A stretch of DNA of 64,000 nucleotides from a bacterium. GTDB taxonomy: Bacteria > Babelota > Babeliae > Babelales > UASB340. The stretch's first letter is position 1, and the number at the start of each line of letters is the position of its first letter. Location: assembly GCA_030629005.1 (NCBI GenBank), contig DAOVPV010000001.1:57427-121426 (forward strand), given 5' to 3'. The notes under the pieces are model-generated. The model was not told the DNA's origin. It was given only the letters and a program-made list of their open reading frames with translations, and did not search any database. Made by a program: the position numbers and the translations under genes. Shown in pieces: positions 2,085-61,950 of the stretch.

Positions 2085-2110
2085 TCTTCTTCCCTAAAAA
2101 TATAAAAAGT

Positions 2111-2150
2111 CACCTGGCCGTGCCAGCCATAGCTGCTTTGCAGCGACGGC
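2111..2150. repeat. GC-rich trailer directly 3' of tRNA-Leu
   Basis: minus-strand reading after CCA: GCCGTCGCTGCAAAGCAGCTATGGCTGGCACGGCCAGGTG; sharp GC island in AT-rich DNA. Confidence 0.6.
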
Positions 2151-2237
2151 TGGTGCCGAAGGTCGGACTCGAACCGACACAGTGTCACCACTACGAGATT
2201 TTGAGTCTCGCGCGTCTACCAATTTCGCCACTTCGGC
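2151..2237 (-). tRNA. tRNA-Leu (anticodon CAA), CCA encoded
   Basis: reverse complement GCCGAAGTGGCGAAATTGGTAGACGCGCGAGACTCAAAATCTCG..GGTTCGAGTCCGACCTTCGGCACCA; long variable arm; anticodon loop CTCAAAA. Confidence 0.92.
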
Positions 2238-4010: not shown

Positions 4011-4047
4011 GTCTTCGCTCCTTCGGAGCTTCGCCTGGCTCGGCCAT
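4011..4047. repeat. GC-rich trailer directly 3' of tRNA-Arg
   Basis: GTCTTCGCTCCTTCGGAGCTTCGCCTGGCTCGGCCATC; shares module CGCTCCTTyGGAGCTTC with 4685-4702. Confidence 0.6.
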
Positions 4048-4094
4048 CTACACATTATAGGTCCAATGGTAACAAAAAATTAAAACGACATTTT

Positions 4095-4124
4095 GTCATC
4101 CTGAATTTATTTCAGGATCCAGTC
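4095..4124 (+). repeat. about 30-bp palindromic repeat (GTCATCCTGAAyTTrTTTCAGGATCCAGTC family)
   Basis: gtcatcctgaatttatttcaggatccagtc; internal hairpin ATCCTGAA/TTCAGGAT; other copies listed separately. Confidence 0.8.
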
Positions 4125-4266: not shown

Positions 4267-4360
4267 CCCTACGCTCTTCGCCTTCGGCTTGTAGCTTCCA
4301 GCCTACGCCCAAGTGGCTACGGCGGACAAGACGGGTGACAGGCCAGTCTACGCCGCTTGG
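4267..4360. repeat. GC-rich mosaic trailer directly 3' of tRNA-Ser(GCU)
   Basis: modules CTACGCTCTTCGCCTTCGGCTTGTAG (4269-4294), CCTACGCCCAAGTGGCTACGGCGGACAAG (4302-4330) and GGGTGACAGGCCAGT (4333-4347), all repeated after the next tRNA-Ser. Confidence 0.7.
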
Positions 4361-4407
4361 AACAAACTACATATGGCACAGCTAGCTTTTTAAAGTTTTT
4401 TAATAAC

Positions 4408-4484
4408 TAGATCCTGAAACGAGTTCAGGATGACAGATTGGCATTGCTTTTTTTGTCATCCTGAATTTATTTCAGAATCCAGTC
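4408..4484. repeat. inverted pair of the 30-bp palindromic repeat
   Basis: reverse copy tagatcctgaaacgagttcaggatgac (4408-4433), 21-nt spacer, forward copy gtcatcctgaatttatttcagaatccagtc (4455-4484). Confidence 0.8.
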
Positions 4485-4635: not shown

Positions 4636-4773
4636 GTCTACGCTCTTCGCCTTCGGCTTGTAGTTTCGGGTGACAGGCCAGTTTACGCTCCTTTGGAGCT
4701 TCCAGCCTACGCCCAAATGGCTACGGCGGACAAGACGTCTGGCATGGCCATCTTTCGCCGCTCGACTTCGCCA
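4636..4773. repeat. GC-rich mosaic trailer directly 3' of tRNA-Ser(UGA)
   Basis: same modules as 4267-4360 in a different order (4638-4663, 4668-4682, 4685-4702, 4706-4734), plus a further GC-rich tail. Confidence 0.7.
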
Positions 4774-4922
4774 ACTTTTAGAACCCAATCCTCTAAAATA
4801 TTCTAAGTCTCAACTAGAAAAATAATCTTTATTCCTTAAATCTAGAAATAAATATTACTTATTTGTTAGCATAACGATTGTATAAATAAAATTACTTTTG
4901 ATATTCAGAAAAGGGAGAAAGT

Positions 4923-15570: not shown

Positions 15571-15740
15571 GGACTTAGACCCCGCATCCAGTGCAGGGTA
15601 ACAAATTCAATAATATTAGACCGTTCGTAAGACCCATTCGACTTCGTGGCAAGCCACTACGCTCAGGGCGAACGGGAAACCGTACAAACCTGACCGTTCG
15701 CCCTGAGCGTAGCAACTTGTTGCGTAGTCGAATGGGTTTT
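15571..15740. repeat. GC-rich long imperfect palindromic element (MITE-like or structured RNA)
   Basis: nested inverted repeats ACCCATTCGACT (15632-15643)/AGTCGAATGGGT (15727-15738) and 19-bp CTACGCTCAGGGCGAACGG (15657-15675)/CCGTTCGCCCTGAGCGTAG (15694-15712); shares CCGTTCGCCCTG with the mutL insert. Confidence 0.7.
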
Positions 15741-16847: not shown

Positions 16848-17087
16848 TTATAAGAAATGTTTTTTAGTAAAAGCCCGACCTGAACCAGACTTTAAGTATC
16901 GTTCAAAATTCATAGCCAACTTTATCCTATTAAAACCAAATAAAGATACTAATTTCCATGGCGCATACTTAGAAGTATAGATACCATCATCAGAATTATG
17001 TTCATTTAAACGACGTTTTAAATTATTTGTAAACCCAATGTAAACTTGATTAGTACTGATCGATTTTATTATATAAACGTAAAACAT
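16848..17087 (-). CDS. small GIY-YIG nuclease family protein
   Basis: 79 aa; FYVYII..VYIGFT (GIY..YIG), LKRRLNEHN, C-terminal FERYLKSGSGRAFTKKHF. Confidence 0.85.
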   Translation of the reverse strand: MFYVYIIKSISTNQVYIGFTNNLKRRLNEHNSDDGIYTSKYAPWKLVSLFGFNRIKLAMNFERYLKSGSGRAFTKKHFL

Positions 17088-17109: not shown

Positions 17110-17223
17110 GACTGTCCTCCACCGCTCTTACAAGCTATGGCGGACACCTACGACATTTTCTATTTATTATCAAATTAAAACCAACAAAATCACTGGCCCT
17201 GGCCGCCGTAGCCTTGGCGTAGG
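17110..17223. repeat. bipartite GC-rich spacer between tRNA-Gln and the GIY-YIG gene
   Basis: module A 17191-17223 (minus strand CCTACGCCAAGGCTACGGCGGCCAGGGCCAGTG), AT-rich gap, module B 17110-17154 containing GTCCGCCATAGC. Confidence 0.7.
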
Positions 17224-17297
17224 TGGCTGGGATGAGAGGATTCGAACCTCTGTTGACGGAACCAGAATCCGTAGTCCTGCCACTAGACGACATCCCA
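17224..17297 (-). tRNA. tRNA-Gln (anticodon CUG), CCA encoded
   Basis: reverse complement TGGGATGTCGTCTAGTGGCAGGACTACGGATTCTGGTTCCGT..GAGGTTCGAATCCTCTCATCCCAGCCA. Confidence 0.9.
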
Positions 17298-17576: not shown

Positions 17577-17658
17577 ACTGGATCCTGAAACAAATTCAGG
17601 ATAACACGTGCAAGAAATTATCTAATTTGTCATCCTGAACTTGTTTCAGGATCCAGTC
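17577..17658. repeat. inverted pair of the 30-bp palindromic repeat
   Basis: reverse copy actggatcctgaaacaaattcaggataac (17577-17605), spacer, forward copy gtcatcctgaacttgtttcaggatccagtc (17629-17658). Confidence 0.8.
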
Positions 17659-24754: not shown

Positions 24755-25375
24755 ATGAAAAAAATATTTATTCTTTTAATCAATCTTTTTTTGCTATTCA
24801 ATTTTGGAATCGCAAAAGAAAAAACAAATCCATTTTCTAAAATAGAAATAACAAGCAACAAAGCCATTGGTAAAAAAGATAACAATCAAGAAAACATTCT
24901 AATCTTTACTTATCTAGAAAATGTGAATATTAATTTTGCAGATAATAGTACAGCAAAGTGTAAAGAGTTAACCATCGAACTTGATACAAAAAAAAAATCA
25001 AACCCTAAAGAAGTAAAAATTACACAAAAAAATATCGATCTTGGTCCGATAACAAAAATAACTTTAAACAAAAATATTTTAATCTCACAAGCTAATAGAA
25101 AAATAAAAGCAGATAACGCAATCTTTTTACCAAATAAAAAAATATGCAATCTTTCCGGGAATATCGAAATAAAACAAGAAAAAAACAATTCTAAAGATCT
25201 ACCAATAACAACAAAATGTAACAAAGCAACTTTAAATTTAGAAACAGATCAAGTTTTATTCGAAGGAAAAACAGATCAACCTGTAAGTACAATAATATCA
25301 TTACAAAATTACCCTAGTCTAATCAAAACAAATAATCGAAAAAAACATTTAATGTTAAAGAAAAAAAATAAATGA
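24755..25375 (+). CDS. periplasmic OstA/LptA-like protein (tentative)
   Basis: signal peptide; repeated beta-strand pattern (IEITSNKAIG.., KCKELTIELD.., KIKADNAIFLPNKKICNLSGNIEI.., KCNKATLNLETDQVLFEGK) as in LptA/LptC-type jellyrolls; located after bamA. Confidence 0.45.
   Translation: MKKIFILLINLFLLFNFGIAKEKTNPFSKIEITSNKAIGKKDNNQENILIFTYLENVNINFADNSTAKCKELTIELDTKKKSNPKEVKITQKNIDLGPITKITLNKNILISQANRKIKADNAIFLPNKKICNLSGNIEIKQEKNNSKDLPITTKCNKATLNLETDQVLFEGKTDQPVSTIISLQNYPSLIKTNNRKKHLMLKKKNK
25336..25356 (+). repeat. copy 4 of recurrent motif (TCGAAAAAAACATTTAATGTT, degenerate left half)
   Basis: palindrome AACATTTAATGTT intact; ends 15 nt before the mutL ATG. Confidence 0.6.
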
Positions 25376-27291
25376 ATAAGATAAAAATATTATCACCCGA
25401 ACAAGCCGCAAAAATTGCAGCTGGAGAAGTTATAGAACGTCCATCTAATATCATAAAAGAAATAATAGAAAACTCTATAGACGCCAAAAGTACACAAATT
25501 AGTTTATACATAAAAGAAGCCGGCAAAAAATTAATTAGAATCGTAGACAATGGTACGGGTATGAATTTTAAAGATGCGCTATTGTGCTTTGCAAATCATG
25601 CAACCAGCAAAATAAATTCTATCGATGATTTAGAACAAATAAATTCTTTTGGCTTTAGAGGAGAAGCTCTATCTAGTATTAATGCAGTAAGCAAAGTAAC
25701 TCTTATTACAAAAACTAAATCGCAAGAGTTAGGAACAAAAATAGAATACACTGAAAATAAAGTATTATCCCAAGAAGAAACATCTTGTCCTGTTGGAACA
25801 GATCTACAAGTAAAAGAACTTTTTTACAACATCCCTGCCCGCAAAAAATTTTTAAAACAAGATGAAACAGAATGGAATCAAATTTTAAATATTTTTCAGG
25901 CTTTCTGCTTAAGCAATATTAATATTCACTTTAAATTATTTAAAGATGAAAGAATTGTAATAAATGCACCGGCAACAAAAAAACTACAAGATCGCACAGC
26001 CCAACTCTGGGGGCATAATTTTAGTCAAAATTTAATACAACTTAAAAATGATAGTGCTGATAAAATTGCAGCAAAAAATAATATTAAACTCACAGGCTCA
26101 ATTTCTAATCATAATTTTTGGCGATATGGAAGACAACAAATCTTCTTTTTTGTTAATGGTAGATACATAAAAAATACCGACCTAAACAAAGCATTGTTAA
26201 AGGGCTACACAGGAGTTTTACCCCCAGCAAGATTTCCTGCAGGTTTTATTTTTTTAGACGTTCCTAGTGATTTTGTAGACATCAACGTACATCCCAAGAA
26301 AGAAGAAGTTAGGTTTTTAAAACCAAATACCGTATCAAATATATTACAAAGATTTGTTAAAGAAACTTTAGATAGTAACGTTAGAAGTTTATTTGGTAGA
26401 GATGACAATGTTATGAATCCTAATATAGCTGTACCGTTTGATGAAAAAACAAACAGCTCCCCGTTCGCCCTGCCGTGCCCGACGAAGCCTTGCGCGAAGT
26501 CTGGGAGTAACCAACATAGCGTTAGCGAAGGTGGTTGTATCGAAGGGTCTAACCGAACGGCCCAAGCTCCACTTAACCTCAACACCTTTTACAATCCTAA
26601 TCAAGAATTAACAGAAACAAAAATTAGACAAAATACTCTTCGCCCACGCGAATTGGAATATGAGAAAACACAAACAACAATTTCTTCTCAAGAGAGCTCT
26701 CAACCAGAAGCAAATTTTAAAATAATTGGACAATATCTAAAAACATATATAATCACTCAAAATGGCGATAACTTAATTATTCTTGATCAACACGCAGCAC
26801 ATGAGCGAATAATCTATGATGAAATAACAAAAAACTTTGAGCAAAAATCTGGAATCAAATCAATGTTTCCTGAAATAATCAACTTAAATTCCCAGGAAAT
26901 AGAAAAAATAACTCTGGCACAAGAATTTTTATTAAACCAGGGGATAGGAATCGAAGTCTTTGGTAAAAACCAAATCGCCATAAAATCTAGTCCACCCAAA
27001 ATACAAAATCAATCCTTAAAAGAGCTAATTTTTGAAATCTTAGAGTTTATAAAAGAAAATGAAGCTCTAGATCAAGAAATATTCAGAAAAAAGCTCAACG
27101 ATAGAATACATGCTCAAATTGCATGCAAATCTGCAGTCAAAGCTGGTGATATTTTAACATTTGAGCAAATGGAAGAAATCGTTAAAAAACTACAAAAAAC
27201 TCAAAACCTTCTAACTTGCCCTCATGGCCGGCCAACAACATGGATTTTGAATAAACATAATATTGAAAAACAATTTAAAAGAAAATTGTAA
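25372..27291 (+). CDS. mutL: DNA mismatch repair protein MutL (endonuclease type) with in-frame GC-rich insert in the linker
   Basis: GHKL ATPase N-terminus (IAAGEVIERPSNIIKEIIENSIDA, DNGTGM, FGFRGEAL); C-terminal DQHAAHERIIYDE endonuclease motif; ATGA overlap with the upstream gene. Confidence 0.95.
   Translation: MNKIKILSPEQAAKIAAGEVIERPSNIIKEIIENSIDAKSTQISLYIKEAGKKLIRIVDNGTGMNFKDALLCFANHATSKINSIDDLEQINSFGFRGEALSSINAVSKVTLITKTKSQELGTKIEYTENKVLSQEETSCPVGTDLQVKELFYNIPARKKFLKQDETEWNQILNIFQAFCLSNINIHFKLFKDERIVINAPATKKLQDRTAQLWGHNFSQNLIQLKNDSADKIAAKNNIKLTGSISNHNFWRYGRQQIFFFVNGRYIKNTDLNKALLKGYTGVLPPARFPAGFIFLDVPSDFVDINVHPKKEEVRFLKPNTVSNILQRFVKETLDSNVRSLFGRDDNVMNPNIAVPFDEKTNSSPFALPCPTKPCAKSGSNQHSVSEGGCIEGSNRTAQAPLNLNTFYNPNQELTETKIRQNTLRPRELEYEKTQTTISSQESSQPEANFKIIGQYLKTYIITQNGDNLIILDQHAAHERIIYDEITKNFEQKSGIKSMFPEIINLNSQEIEKITLAQEFLLNQGIGIEVFGKNQIAIKSSPPKIQNQSLKELIFEILEFIKENEALDQEIFRKKLNDRIHAQIACKSAVKAGDILTFEQMEEIVKKLQKTQNLLTCPHGRPTTWILNKHNIEKQFKRKL
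26455..26570 (+). repeat. GC-rich palindromic element inserted in frame within mutL
   Basis: abrupt GC island; termini CCGTTCG (26461)/CGAACGG (26560) are inverted; AGCTCC occurs on both sides (26455-26460, 26565-26570); encodes SSPFALPCPTKPCAKSGSNQHSVSEGGCIEGSNRTAQAP. Confidence 0.7.
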
Positions 27292-53587: not shown

Positions 53588-54271
53588 TTAGGTAATACTA
53601 AATAACTCAGATAAAATAAAATTTAAATTACAAGAAGAATTCCAATCCATCATCCCTAAATAATCAATAGAAACAAAATCTCCAACACAAGTGCTAAAAA
53701 CATTAGGAGAATTCGTTGGAAAAATTAAAGGAAATTTAATATAAAAAGTTTGCTCATTTATTTTTGCTGTTAAAATAAGCGTAAAATCATCTGTAATGTT
53801 AATTGCCATAAGACTTGTATTATCTAAAATTTCTTGATCCTGATAATCATATATAAATTTCAATACATTAGAAACATATTCTCGATTTTGTTCTAAGCAA
53901 GTTCTAAAATTTTCATCTATAATCACAAAATCACTATCATTTGATTCTAATGTAACAAATTCAATCTCACTTTTTCTTCTCACAAGATCAAATAAAAGAT
54001 CTTCTAAACTAACGAAAAAAGTTTCTAATGAAAGTTCCTCTTGTGAAAAAACATCTCCAGGATAATCTGTACCAGATTCTGAACCAAAGCAAGTAGAAGA
54101 TTGTTCTGAATTAGGAGCACTAGCCGATAAGGAACTAATACCATCAAAAATATCTCTTGAATCTGCAGAAACAAAAGACCTTAATCTTCTTGATTGTGCA
54201 TCCAAACTTGATGTTATAAAAAAAACAAAAATTAAAATTTTGATATAAAAAGAAATTTTCATAAAATCCAT
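53588..54271 (-). CDS. hypothetical secreted acidic protein
   Basis: 227 aa; signal-like ISFYIKILIFVFFITSSLDA; no recognisable motif. Confidence 0.45.
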   Translation of the reverse strand: MDFMKISFYIKILIFVFFITSSLDAQSRRLRSFVSADSRDIFDGISSLSASAPNSEQSSTCFGSESGTDYPGDVFSQEELSLETFFVSLEDLLFDLVRRKSEIEFVTLESNDSDFVIIDENFRTCLEQNREYVSNVLKFIYDYQDQEILDNTSLMAINITDDFTLILTAKINEQTFYIKFPLIFPTNSPNVFSTCVGDFVSIDYLGMMDWNSSCNLNFILSELFSIT

Positions 54272-54329
54272 AAAAAATAATGTTGTTTATAAAAAAATTA
54301 ATTTACTGGCCGAGCCATACTATATTAAA

Positions 54330-54569
54330 CTAAAAATGCCTTTTAGCAAAAGACCGACCTGAACCAGATTTTAAATACCTTTCAAACTCTTGAGCTTTTA
54401 TTTTATCAGCAAAGGCAATATATGTTTCTAATCTCCAAGGCTTTAATTTCGCAGTATGTTTAGACATAGAGCTGTTATGATAAAGTAAACGCTTTTTCAA
54501 ATCAACGGTTATACCAGTATATCTTCTATCTGGATTATCAATAGATTGAATTATATAAACGTAATGCAT
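54330..54569 (-). CDS. small GIY-YIG nuclease family protein (paralogue of 16848..17087)
   Basis: 79 aa; HYVYIIQS..RYTGIT, LKKRLLYHN, FERYLKSGSGRSFAKRHF. Confidence 0.85.
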   Translation of the reverse strand: MHYVYIIQSIDNPDRRYTGITVDLKKRLLYHNSSMSKHTAKLKPWRLETYIAFADKIKAQEFERYLKSGSGRSFAKRHF

Positions 54570-54595
54570 CCAAATTACCTTCTAGATATCAAAAT

Positions 54596-54706
54596 AGTCC
54601 GCCTTCGTGATACTTCGGCGTGACAGCCTTCGCACCGTCTTCTATAAATATTATTTTTAAAATAAATACCTTTACTGGCTCGCCAAGCCGTAGCTTTAGC
54701 GAAGGC
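54596..54706. repeat. bipartite GC-rich spacer between tmRNA and the GIY-YIG gene
   Basis: module A 54674-54706 (minus strand GCCTTCGCTAAAGCTACGGCTTGGCGAGCCAGT), AT-rich gap, module B 54596-54643. Confidence 0.7.
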
Positions 54707-55089
54707 TGGTGGAGGCGATGGGAGTCGAACCCATGTCCGCAACGCATTCAATTTCAAGCACTACATGTTTATCTCTCGAATATACTCTTACTTCACCTCA
54801 AGAGCAAAGAAAGAAGTAAAAGCCGGTTTAGTGATTTTCGCTTCATACAAAACCAAAAAATCTATAAAGCGAGTTCTATCTTGTTTAATACGAGCCAGTT
54901 CCACTGATAGACATGCTTCACTGACAAGACCTACTAATAGCTATTATTAGCAGACAGCGGTAGCCCCTGTAGGAATACCGGTATTAACTAAGTTTGCACT
55001 TATTAATTCGTATGATTTTTACAAGCTCCCATACAAAACTCGACATGCTCTCAAAACGTCAAACATCACGTCGAAACCGTGACGCCCCC
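54707..55089 (-). ncRNA. ssrA: tmRNA (SsrA)
   Basis: 5' GGGGGCGTCACGGTTTCGACG..; 3' ..GGGTTCGACTCCCATCGCCTCCACCA; acceptor pairing includes the G3-U wobble; internal tag frame GCA AAC .. TGC followed by TAA TAA TAG. Confidence 0.9.
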
Positions 55090-59378: not shown

Positions 59379-59408
59379 GTCATCCTAAACCTGCTTCAAG
59401 GTCCAGTC
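59379..59408 (+). repeat. degenerate copy of the 30-bp palindromic repeat
   Basis: gtcatcctaaacctgcttcaaggtccagtc. Confidence 0.6.
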
Positions 59409-61920: not shown

Positions 61921-61950
61921 GACTAGATCCTGAACTTGTTTCAGGATCTC
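61921..61950 (-). repeat. copy of the 30-bp palindromic repeat (inverted orientation) directly after the leuS stop
   Basis: gactagatcctgaacttgtttcaggatctc. Confidence 0.75.

Follow-up and report, generated by a model that had tools for sequence, protein, structure and literature searches.

Short palindromic repeats that carry a CGTC or TGTC tag, among them the Rickettsia palindromic elements RPE-4 and RPE-6 and Neisseria dRS3, are found in several phyla, mostly as head-to-head pairs. They end in a CCA motif on one side, occur as in-frame insertions in genes including DNA repair genes, and "apparently lack a dedicated transposase" (Di Nocera et al., 2013, PMC3733652). The consensus of these repetitive extragenic palindromic (REP) sequences consists of the unpaired CGTC/TGTC tag, a perfect stem of 8-9 bp starting with AT, a loop of 4-5 nt and the CCA tail (PMC3733652). 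The gene of phage T4 SegB, a free-standing GIY-YIG homing endonuclease, lies in a tRNA gene cluster (PMC2330249), and enzymes of the SLX1 lineage, the closest solved relatives of the protein described below, are structure-selective nucleases of branched DNA (PMC9071465). Prokaryotic Slx1-like proteins have been found fused to, or in operons with, methyltransferases, one of them TrmH-like, in which the authors see a hint of RNA metabolism (PMC1564403). For bacterial stand-alone members of the SLX1/UPF0213 type, no established function was found in the literature searched. Here we analyze a 64,000-nt stretch of contig DAOVPV010000001.1 from a bacterium of the Babelota (the window), in which the transfer-messenger RNA (tmRNA) gene ssrA is followed by two GC-rich modules, A and B, and an open reading frame (ORF) for a 79-aa GIY-YIG protein. 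We refer to this locus as cassette 2, and to a paralogous arrangement behind a tRNA gene of the same window as cassette 1.

Our best reading is that cassette 2 is one of a widespread, previously unnamed kind of small accessory module located at the CCA ends of tRNA and tmRNA genes. The analysis points to a small mobile module of repeats plus nuclease rather than to a classical integrated island.

Cassette 2 behind ssrA

The first-pass annotation of this DNA had proposed the order tmRNA, GC module A, AT-rich gap, module B and 79-aa GIY-YIG ORF, and we confirmed both the order and the coordinates. Its module B (54643-54596) is better split into a short element, S3, and a hairpin. As the window has a GC content of 30.7%, the GC-rich segments of the cassettes stand out. 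The features of cassette 2 are given below, with repeat units scored by R1, a covariance model trained solely on B-type hairpins.

54707-55089, minus strand: complete tmRNA gene (ssrA) with CCA end (ARAGORN; Rfam RF00023), the upstream anchor of cassette 2
54674-54706, minus strand: module A, an A-type palindromic unit (GCCTTCGCTAAAGCTACGGCTTGGCGAGCCAGT), its first base directly following the tmRNA CCA; it consists of S1 (GCCTTCGC, 54706-54699), the loop TAAA, S2 (GCTACGGC, 54694-54687) and TTGG-CGAG-CCAGT (54686-54674)
54634-54673, minus strand: AT-rich gap between A and S3, poorly conserved, differing in length and sequence among loci
54626-54633, minus strand: S3 (GCGAAGGC), complementary without mismatch to S1 (the initial 8 nt of A)
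54597-54625, minus strand: module B hairpin, a B-type unit (R1 match 54595-54625, 34.7 bits, E = 4.5e-7)
54570-54596, minus strand: leader of 27 nt between B and the ORF start, with a ribosome-binding-site-like GAAGG recognized from the sequence
54330-54569, minus strand: GIY-YIG nuclease gene, 79 aa, catalytic domain only, SLX1/UPF0213 type (Pfam PF01541)
54305-54319, minus strand: TATGGCTCGGCCAGT after the stop codon, read as a second S2-like segment plus the mini-hairpin TGG-CTCGG-CCA

The ssrA gene matched RF00023 over the full length of the model (positions 1-374) with 163.4 bits (cut-off 47). ARAGORN predicted the tag ANLVNTGIPTGATAVC, followed by three stop codons. The ending of this tag is unusual next to that of the ortholog at locus L145 (...NAAFA).

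The stem of module A reaches into the tmRNA end, where CCA pairs with TGG, and S3 together with the following TG also pairs with the CA of the same CCA. Module B has the outer stem GTCaCGCC/GGCGGAC, a 3x3 internal loop (GAA/GAA), the inner stem GU/AC and an apical loop; TGTC is found at the 5' foot of B units. A promoter/terminator scan of the interval from ssrA to the ORF detected no site resembling either. The whole insert behind ssrA measures about 400 bp. A weak direct repeat (GCCAGTAAA...; D3, 25 nt, 76%), formed by the end of module A and the TATGGCTCGGCCAGT segment, brackets S3, B and the ORF. At cassette 2 only a partial unit is seen 3' of the ORF; stronger equivalents of the bracketing repeat occur at two other loci, L149 (a direct repeat of about 90 nt) and L150 (a second full A unit).

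Modules A and B are inverted copies of one repeat

Read on its purine-rich strand, the repeat unit consists of an outer stem, a 3x3 internal loop G-N-A/G-N-A, a GC:GC step and a variable apical hairpin. The internal loop occurs as GAA/GAA, GTA/GAA, GAA/GTA, ATA/GAC and in further variants. Folding of single spacer sequences was unconvincing (z about -1.8), so that a comparative analysis was needed. For 28 aligned B hairpins, the stems were 94.6% paired with 21 double-change cells, and none of 500 shuffles reached the observed score.

R1 also matched module A of cassette 2, on the opposite strand (54681-54712, plus strand, 24.4 bits). It further matched B of both window cassettes and the units downstream of tRNA-Ser genes, the latter again on the strand opposite the tRNA. 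Because a model built from B hairpins alone finds A on the opposite strand, modules A and B are the same palindromic hairpin repeat in opposite orientations. What had been described as a bipartite GC spacer is really a pair of inverted repeat-unit copies, and A-type units also follow four other tRNA genes of the window. Across 50 sources, R1 gave 97 matches; 56 B-oriented and 37 A-oriented units showed the same loop classes, GTA/GAA and GAA/GAA.

Units in the A orientation have a stem that runs into the RNA gene (CCA, then GCC-TTC-GC...GC-TAC-GGC-TGG). Over 16 loci, this S1:S2 helix, including CCA:TGG, was 95.3% paired with compensatory changes, and the long-range pairing S1:S3 was 95.6% paired with 11 double-change cells (0/500 shuffles in either case). 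Including the CA of the CCA, S3 is a perfect complement to the initial 8-12 nt of A. Since S1 pairs with S2 and with S3, and both pairings covary, the start of A has two alternative partners. The A helix is followed by a small hairpin, TGG-GCAAG-CCA, so that the unit again ends in ...GCCA(G). A pairing of S2 with the 5' half of B was considered and dropped, because L002 and L019 have different outer stems in A and B.

Stem mismatches on the strand with the purine loops amounted to 11 G:T and no A:C, in both orientations, which suggests that it is always the same DNA strand of a unit that folds, irrespective of the direction of transcription. The spacer of cassette 2 had no Rfam match at gathering score, and only noise at E-values up to 10 within 54250-54760; the spacers of 20 related loci had no Rfam match at gathering score either.

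The layout recurs at tRNA and tmRNA genes of many bacteria

The presence of the same order at two tRNA-type genes, put forward as the key observation by the first-pass annotation, is real and is the key feature of the locus. Cassette 1 has the tRNA, A, gap, S3 plus B and ORF as follows.

17224-17297, minus strand: tRNA-Gln(CTG), the anchor of cassette 1 (ARAGORN; Rfam)
17112-17223, minus strand: spacer of cassette 1, with A (17223-17191), an AT-rich gap, S3 (CGTAGG, 17152-17147) and B (17146-17112)
16848-17087, minus strand: paralogous 79-aa GIY-YIG gene (PF01541)

R1 matched this spacer at 17200-17229 (plus strand) and 17112-17146 (minus strand). The two ORFs are paralogous, as had been proposed, with 53% identity between the proteins and PF01541 in both. 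Among the units in tRNA flanks of the window, the B orientation, with S3, was found only ahead of the two nuclease genes.

We then considered 62 loci with relatives of the nuclease, one genome per species. They belong to the Babeliales, Alphaproteobacteria (Mesorhizobium, Bradyrhizobium, Micavibrio), Acidobacteria, Neomarinimicrobiota and Patescibacteria, and further to Verrucomicrobia, Lentisphaerae, Planctomycetes, Campylobacterota, Bacteroidota and others. The layout of a tRNA or tmRNA CCA end followed by A, B and the GIY-YIG gene was present at about 40 loci in many named bacterial groups, and the spacers of related loci had the same order of A, S3 and B. A tRNA or tmRNA end on the same strand lay at most 400 nt upstream of the nuclease gene at 29 or more of the 62 loci; at several further loci a tRNA 3' end was recognized by eye. 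The anchors were tRNA-Ser, Arg, Gln, Leu, Ala, Val and Pro, and tmRNA in Acidobacteria (L015) and Peribacteria (L021).

Units and gene are tightly linked. For 38 GIY-YIG loci, 64 of 68 R1 units fell within -400/+250 nt of the ORF, a density of 2.78 per kb compared with 0.024 per kb elsewhere (115-fold enrichment). A B-oriented unit ended 2-66 nt before the ORF at 26 loci, and about 28 of the 37 A-oriented R1 matches started at an annotated tRNA or tmRNA end (tally against ARAGORN and Rfam coordinates).

Two extra loci were sampled independently via protein ids. L149, in the complete genome of Actomonas aquatica, has tRNA-Ala, A, S3 plus B and the ORF, followed by S2, linker, S3 and B once more; the ORF is bracketed by two nearly identical direct copies of a stretch of about 90 nt with S2, linker, S3, B and tail (about 1392-1483 and about 1753-1843), which suggests that the ORF came or went by recombination between the repeat copies. 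L150, in a metagenome-assembled genome of the Planctomycetes, has tRNA-Pro, A, S3 plus B and the ORF, and then a second A unit in the orientation of the first. Units were thus present on both sides of the gene in L014, L033, L149 and L150, inverted in L014 and L033 and direct in L149.

Distant GIY-YIG relatives in Bacteroidota are linked to tRNA genes, with a plain terminator instead of GC units. In the Cytophagales locus L039 (2151-3420), a block of terminator, GIY-YIG ORF and degenerate tRNA piece occurs at least three times in tandem behind an intact tRNA-Asp; the pieces span the D-loop to the 3' end, and GC units are absent. A similar tandem array with tRNA-Ser pieces is present at L056.

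Some anchors were atypical. At L022 (2740-3372), units and nuclease gene come after the 5' half of a tRNA-Arg(TCT), which breaks off just past the anticodon loop. The nuclease gene is in turn followed by a complete tRNA-Arg, and the C-terminus of another GIY-YIG protein is encoded upstream, as if a tRNA gene had been rearranged internally. At L007 (2760-2834), L009 (2770-2844) and L011 (2810-2883), the cassette is located behind a conserved sequence of about 70 nt that ends in ...GACACCA or ...GACAGCCA. This sequence had no ARAGORN or Rfam match, the consensus fold of the three sequences was weak, and it may be a candidate small RNA gene with a CCA end.

Constraint on the units and their presence in relatives

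The ortholog at L145 encodes a protein 71% identical to that of cassette 2 and shares the synteny rsmA-ssrA-GIY-YIG-x-rarA. Identities between the two loci were as follows.

tmRNA: 78%
module A: 33/33 (100%)
S3 plus B: 85%
ORF: 73%
AT-rich gap: about 68% (31 nt scored)
leader: 55%
downstream sequence: 25%

Changes in S3 and B were confined to the inner loop and the apex. First, second and third codon positions of the ORF were identical at 61, 67 and 46 of 79 codons, respectively (third positions 58%), and this pattern indicates that the nuclease gene is under purifying selection. Judged by these identities, the modules are under purifying selection as well, and are more constrained than the nuclease gene.

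The first-pass annotation had asked for relatives with an unoccupied ssrA flank, and such relatives exist. A search with the RsmA protein gave 80 metagenome loci, 8 of which keep the divergent rsmA-ssrA arrangement. The ssrA CCA is followed by unrelated AT-rich sequence in two of the eight, by a plain terminator in three, and in one each by a partial A unit with a T-run, by a terminator with one B-like unit, and by A, S3 and B without ORF; seven syntenic relatives have no cassette after ssrA. The cassette is therefore an accessory insertion. The closest relative, L063 (RsmA 78% identical), carries a variant A, S3 and B after ssrA and no nuclease gene. In this variant, GCC is replaced by GTC in S1, with matching changes in S2 and S3, and no GIY-YIG remnant was found in L063 even at E-values up to 50. 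L142 similarly has a copy of A and B without the gene.

At orthologous tRNA-Ser(CGA) genes, the flank was filled in 3 of 18 loci. The filled junction of L082 reads CCA, unit...CCAG, TAAAAT, compared with CCA, TAAAAT at the empty site, which is consistent with insertion right after CCA without target duplication. The ssrA 3' end was not found a second time, whether searched as a 23-mer (up to 3 mismatches allowed) or as an 11-mer (up to 1), and a repeat search gave nothing beyond the weak 25-nt repeat. No integrase gene is present between ssrA and the next genes, where only the 79-aa ORF is found; the next genes, a 227-aa ORF and rarA, are syntenic in relatives.

According to the first-pass annotation, the linkage of nuclease gene and GC modules would be coincidental if relatives lacking the nuclease kept the GC-rich flanks and no target duplication existed. 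Formally, both are the case: L063 has A, S3 and B without the nuclease gene, and no target duplication was found. The linkage is nevertheless not coincidental, because nearly all R1 units lie near an ORF (64/68, 115-fold) and because the B orientation occurs in the window only before nuclease genes.

The GIY-YIG protein

The cassette 2 protein matched the Pfam GIY-YIG family (PF01541) with 56 bits (E = 4.9e-15), and the cassette 1 protein with 62.1 bits (E = 6.4e-17; cut-off 22.6 for both). Residues Y5, Y17, G19, R27, H31 and E63 were invariant in 21 homologs; in a second set of 35 homologs, Y5, Y17, R27 and H31 were invariant and E63 was conserved in at least 90%. The family has a C-terminal signature of its own, YLKSGSGRxFAKRHF. 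All 209 of 209 database relatives are about 80 aa long and have generic names only.

An AlphaFold model of the 79-aa protein had a pLDDT of 94.6. Its best fold matches in the PDB were At-HIGLE, Slx1 and the UPF0213 protein BH0048 (TMq 0.55-0.78, Foldseek probability 1.0), with Slx1 reaching a TMq of up to 0.78 at a root-mean-square deviation of 1.2 Å; no UvrC or I-TevI structure was among the fold matches listed. BH0048 was also the best PDB sequence match (E = 4e-5). The protein is a catalytic domain of the SLX1/UPF0213 type, with an SLX1-like fold in the model. The GIY-YIG domain covers residues 1-71, and no further domain, including a RING/zinc finger or a DNA-binding domain, was found beyond the 79-aa core.

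The GIY-YIG homing model TIGR01453 scored 22.1 bits, below its cut-off of 56, and a weak PHROG match to a GIY-YIG homing endonuclease was obtained, in both cases for the paralog only. PADLOC gave no meaningful match that would indicate a defence origin. Viral contigs hardly contain the family; only 3 matches were obtained, all at contig ends.

Further units in the window

R1 identified at least 9 unit sites in the window. Outside the two cassettes, they include the following.

2107-2150, minus strand: A-type unit directly after the tRNA-Leu CCA, then a T-run (R1 with filters off, 2120-2156, plus strand, 13.8 bits, E = 0.013)
4011-4054, plus strand: A-type unit directly after the tRNA-Arg CCA (partial R1 match 4013-4033, minus strand, E = 0.11)
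4267-4363, plus strand: nested A-type units after tRNA-Ser(GCT), the inner unit after an internal ...TTCCA (R1 4295-4329, minus strand)
4636-4775, plus strand: nested A-type units after tRNA-Ser(TGA) (R1 4699-4733, minus strand)
26448-26570, plus strand: two B-oriented units in-frame in mutL (ORF 25372-27291), in a disordered linker

The tRNA-Met of the window has no unit. The mutL units fall between the DNA_mis_repair domain (residues 210-333) and MutL_C (452-594), an in-gene insertion as known for Rickettsia palindromic elements. Around 15628-15737, an intergenic composite of GC units is found with no tRNA adjoining; it contains a long hairpin (CCCATTCGACTTCG...GCGTAGTCGAATGGG) that encloses both TGGCAAGCCA and a second perfect hairpin.

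A T-run often follows A-only units or the terminal mini-hairpin (window 2107-2150; flanks of L073, L103, L007 and L145). Such A-only units with a T-run look, from their sequence, like intrinsic terminators of the tRNA or tmRNA gene. Copies ahead of a GIY-YIG gene have no T-run.

The window also holds a second, distinct palindromic repeat of the form (T)GTC-ATCCTGAA-loop-TTCAGGAT-CCA, with 7 copies (4095-4121, 4408-4434, 4455-4481, 17579-17605, 17629-17655, 59379-59405 and 61924-61950; 0 expected by chance), two of which form a head-to-head pair (17579-17655). It fits the super-family of CGTC/TGTC-tagged, CCA-tailed REPs (PMC3733652).

Interpretation

The GC units are repeat DNA of the kind of REPs or miniature inverted-repeat transposable elements, because they occur in both orientations, as nested and in-gene copies and as non-autonomous copies, and are present or absent at orthologous sites. 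Their tight and specific placement, the intact catalytic residues of the nuclease, the stronger constraint on the units and the structure-selective fold argue that nuclease and units form a functional pair. We therefore favor, with a probability of about 0.42, a pairing of palindromic repeats with a structure-selective GIY-YIG nuclease that would resemble the pairing of REPs with REP-associated tyrosine transposases (RAYTs), and in which insertion would occur after CCA ends. The nuclease gene, with no detectable promoter of its own, would be read through from the tmRNA or tRNA promoter. By analogy to REP/REPIN-RAYT systems, the nuclease would recognize DNA units folded into a hairpin or cruciform and cut there. 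Through repair or strand transfer, the units, and at times the gene as well, would then be copied to positions immediately 3' of a stem plus CCA, with no target duplication. A-only copies that gained a T-run would now act as tRNA terminators. The action of the nuclease on the units, DNA as its substrate and the mode of spread are all inferred from this analogy. That the mini GIY-YIG protein is a dedicated non-HUH enzyme of REP-like repeats, parallel to RAYT and inserting or copying hairpin or cruciform units 3' of stem-plus-CCA ends of tRNA and tmRNA genes, is a tentative extension that we consider doubtful.

Several points weigh against the pairing of nuclease and repeats. The tie between the two is drawn from analogy and placement. 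Units without a nuclease gene within 8 kb exist at L063, L142 and L103, and there is no nuclease gene at any of the four window tRNA genes (tRNA-Leu, tRNA-Arg and both tRNA-Ser) that are followed by A-type units. The protein has no DNA-binding domain beyond its 79-aa core. The unit-free Bacteroidota loci may mean that tRNA linkage is a property of the gene and not of the units, and the model with which the units were collected may have biased the 11:0 count of G:T versus A:C mismatches. The exact abutment of A to the CCA, its pairing with it and the two partners of S1 would fit an RNA switch or processing element equally well, and the methyltransferase links of prokaryotic Slx1-like proteins are a hint in the same direction (PMC1564403).

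The main rival is accordingly a role at the RNA level, which we judge somewhat unlikely. Modules A and B would be parts of a tmRNA-mRNA or tRNA-mRNA co-transcript, in which hairpin A sequesters the CCA, and the alternative S1:S3 helix together with B is a processing or stability platform that parts the stable RNA from the nuclease mRNA and sets nuclease expression; the GIY-YIG protein itself may be an endoribonuclease that frees the CCA end, in which case genomes with many A units would depend on it. The start of A at the base after CCA is as expected for such an element, as are the CCA:TGG pairs in its stem, the CA:TG pairs in S1:S3 and the switch-like choice of S1 between two mutually exclusive, covarying partners. 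Between ssrA and the ORF, nothing like a promoter or terminator was detected, the terminator-like T-run of A-only copies is absent from cassette copies, one of the methyltransferases linked to Slx1-like proteins is TrmH-like (PMC1564403), and the Bacteroidota genes keep their tRNA linkage without units. However, A transcribed as RNA would show a U-U-C/U-A-C loop and not G-N-A/G-N-A. As A is the reverse complement of a B-type unit, a single RNA-binding specificity cannot read both. The G:T wobbles of A units are on the strand antisense to the tRNA, and units are also present in-frame in mutL and in intergenic DNA away from tRNA genes. Moreover, no Rfam family matches, the closest solved relatives act on branched DNA (PMC9071465), and orthologous tRNA sites without units show that relatives can mature these tRNAs without the element.

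Quite unlikely, in our estimate, is a free-standing GIY-YIG homing endonuclease that targets tRNA and tmRNA genes, with the units as unrelated REP-like passengers or terminators in the same safe flanks. The partial tRNA duplications beside GIY-YIG copies in L039, L022, L031 and L033 do resemble footprints of cut and repair, the Bacteroidota relatives are tRNA-linked and unit-free, a second, different REP family in the window shows that repeats are common here, and the paralog has its weak PHROG match. Against this, known GIY-YIG homing enzymes owe their target specificity to a DNA-binding domain, which this protein does not have (TIGR01453, 22 versus 56 bits), and its fold is nearest to SLX1, with no UvrC or I-TevI among the matches listed. 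B with S3 is found in the window only ahead of nuclease genes, 26 loci have a B unit ending 2-66 nt short of the ORF, module A is better conserved than the ORF, and the family's 3 viral matches are all at contig ends. An island inserted by an integrase at ssrA, as suggested by the first-pass annotation, is highly improbable. tmRNA genes are known integration targets, and empty ssrA flanks exist in relatives; but the missing att repeat of the ssrA 3' end and the missing integrase already refute it. The insert is also only about 400 bp long, the neighboring 227-aa ORF and rarA are syntenic, and att repeats are also lacking where this layout recurs behind many different tRNA genes.

The literature searched, in full text, contained no description of GIY-YIG genes tied to tRNA or tmRNA ends or to palindromic repeats. 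What we favor as new here are palindromic repeats whose enzyme is a GIY-YIG nuclease and which target CCA ends. If this is true, a REP-like repeat family would for the first time be linked to an enzyme outside the HUH class. It would provide a function for the large bacterial SLX1/UPF0213 family, and a candidate answer to why CCA-tailed REPs seem to have no transposase; it would also bear on the question, raised by Di Nocera et al. (PMC3733652), of how such REPs originate and are dispersed. Targeting of CCA ends would also explain variation in tRNA and tmRNA flanks that does not come from integrase-borne islands. Bacterial stand-alone proteins of this type are widespread, and the conserved units A and B beside the gene make their function testable. 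The position behind tRNA and tmRNA genes is invisible to gene-neighborhood methods that consider proteins only. For annotation, GC-rich sequence after tRNA genes in such AT-rich genomes should be treated as repeat DNA and not as part of the RNA gene.

Comparison with known systems

The free-standing GIY-YIG homing genes share with the cassettes a small GIY-YIG gene beside tRNA genes and its variable presence. The cassette protein, in contrast, has no DNA-binding domain, its gene is cellular and not phage-borne, and the units are more constrained than the gene. To SLX1, At-HIGLE and the UPF0213 proteins BH0048 and YhbQ, the cassette protein is related by its predicted fold and the conserved Y, Y, R, H and E. 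Unlike eukaryotic SLX1, it has no RING/zinc finger and no room for an interface with an SLX4-type partner. It differs from the SLX1/UPF0213 lineage in its YLKSGSGRxFAKRHF tail and in the location of its gene behind tRNA or tmRNA genes with palindromic units.

IS200/IS605 elements resemble the units in having subterminal hairpins. They insert 3' of a short motif, in a fixed orientation and without target duplication, as the units would at CCA. The right end of these elements resembles the target, as does the end of the units (...GCCAG). Filled and empty flanks of tRNA-Ser(CGA) and ssrA are consistent with insertion right after CCA and no duplication. However, there is no TnpA/HUH gene in the cassette, and the units are far smaller than an insertion sequence.

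The CGTC/TGTC-tagged REPs are palindromic, have CCA at one end and occur inside genes, as do the GC units, which also have TGTC at the foot of B. The GC units differ by their interrupted stems, 3x3 loop and variable apex and do not conform to the REP consensus, and no link to GIY-YIG genes or tRNA ends is reported for these REPs (PMC3733652).

The systems of REPs, REPINs and RAYTs (REPtrons) likewise consist of short GC-rich palindromic units, alone or paired in inverted orientation, that are scattered between genes and at times within them, and whose presence varies among relatives. A REPtron has a single small enzyme gene with units on both sides; for the GIY-YIG gene, flanking units are inverted in L014 and L033, direct in L149 and of one orientation in L150, and in the window the ORF is followed by a partial unit. 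The enzyme, however, is a 79-aa GIY-YIG nuclease in the cassettes, whereas RAYT is an HUH/Y1 transposase. The cassette units have a conserved 3x3 G-N-A/G-N-A loop inside the stem where REPs have an unpaired GTAG head, and their copies, unlike those of REPs, concentrate in fixed orientation at the CCA ends of tRNA and tmRNA genes.

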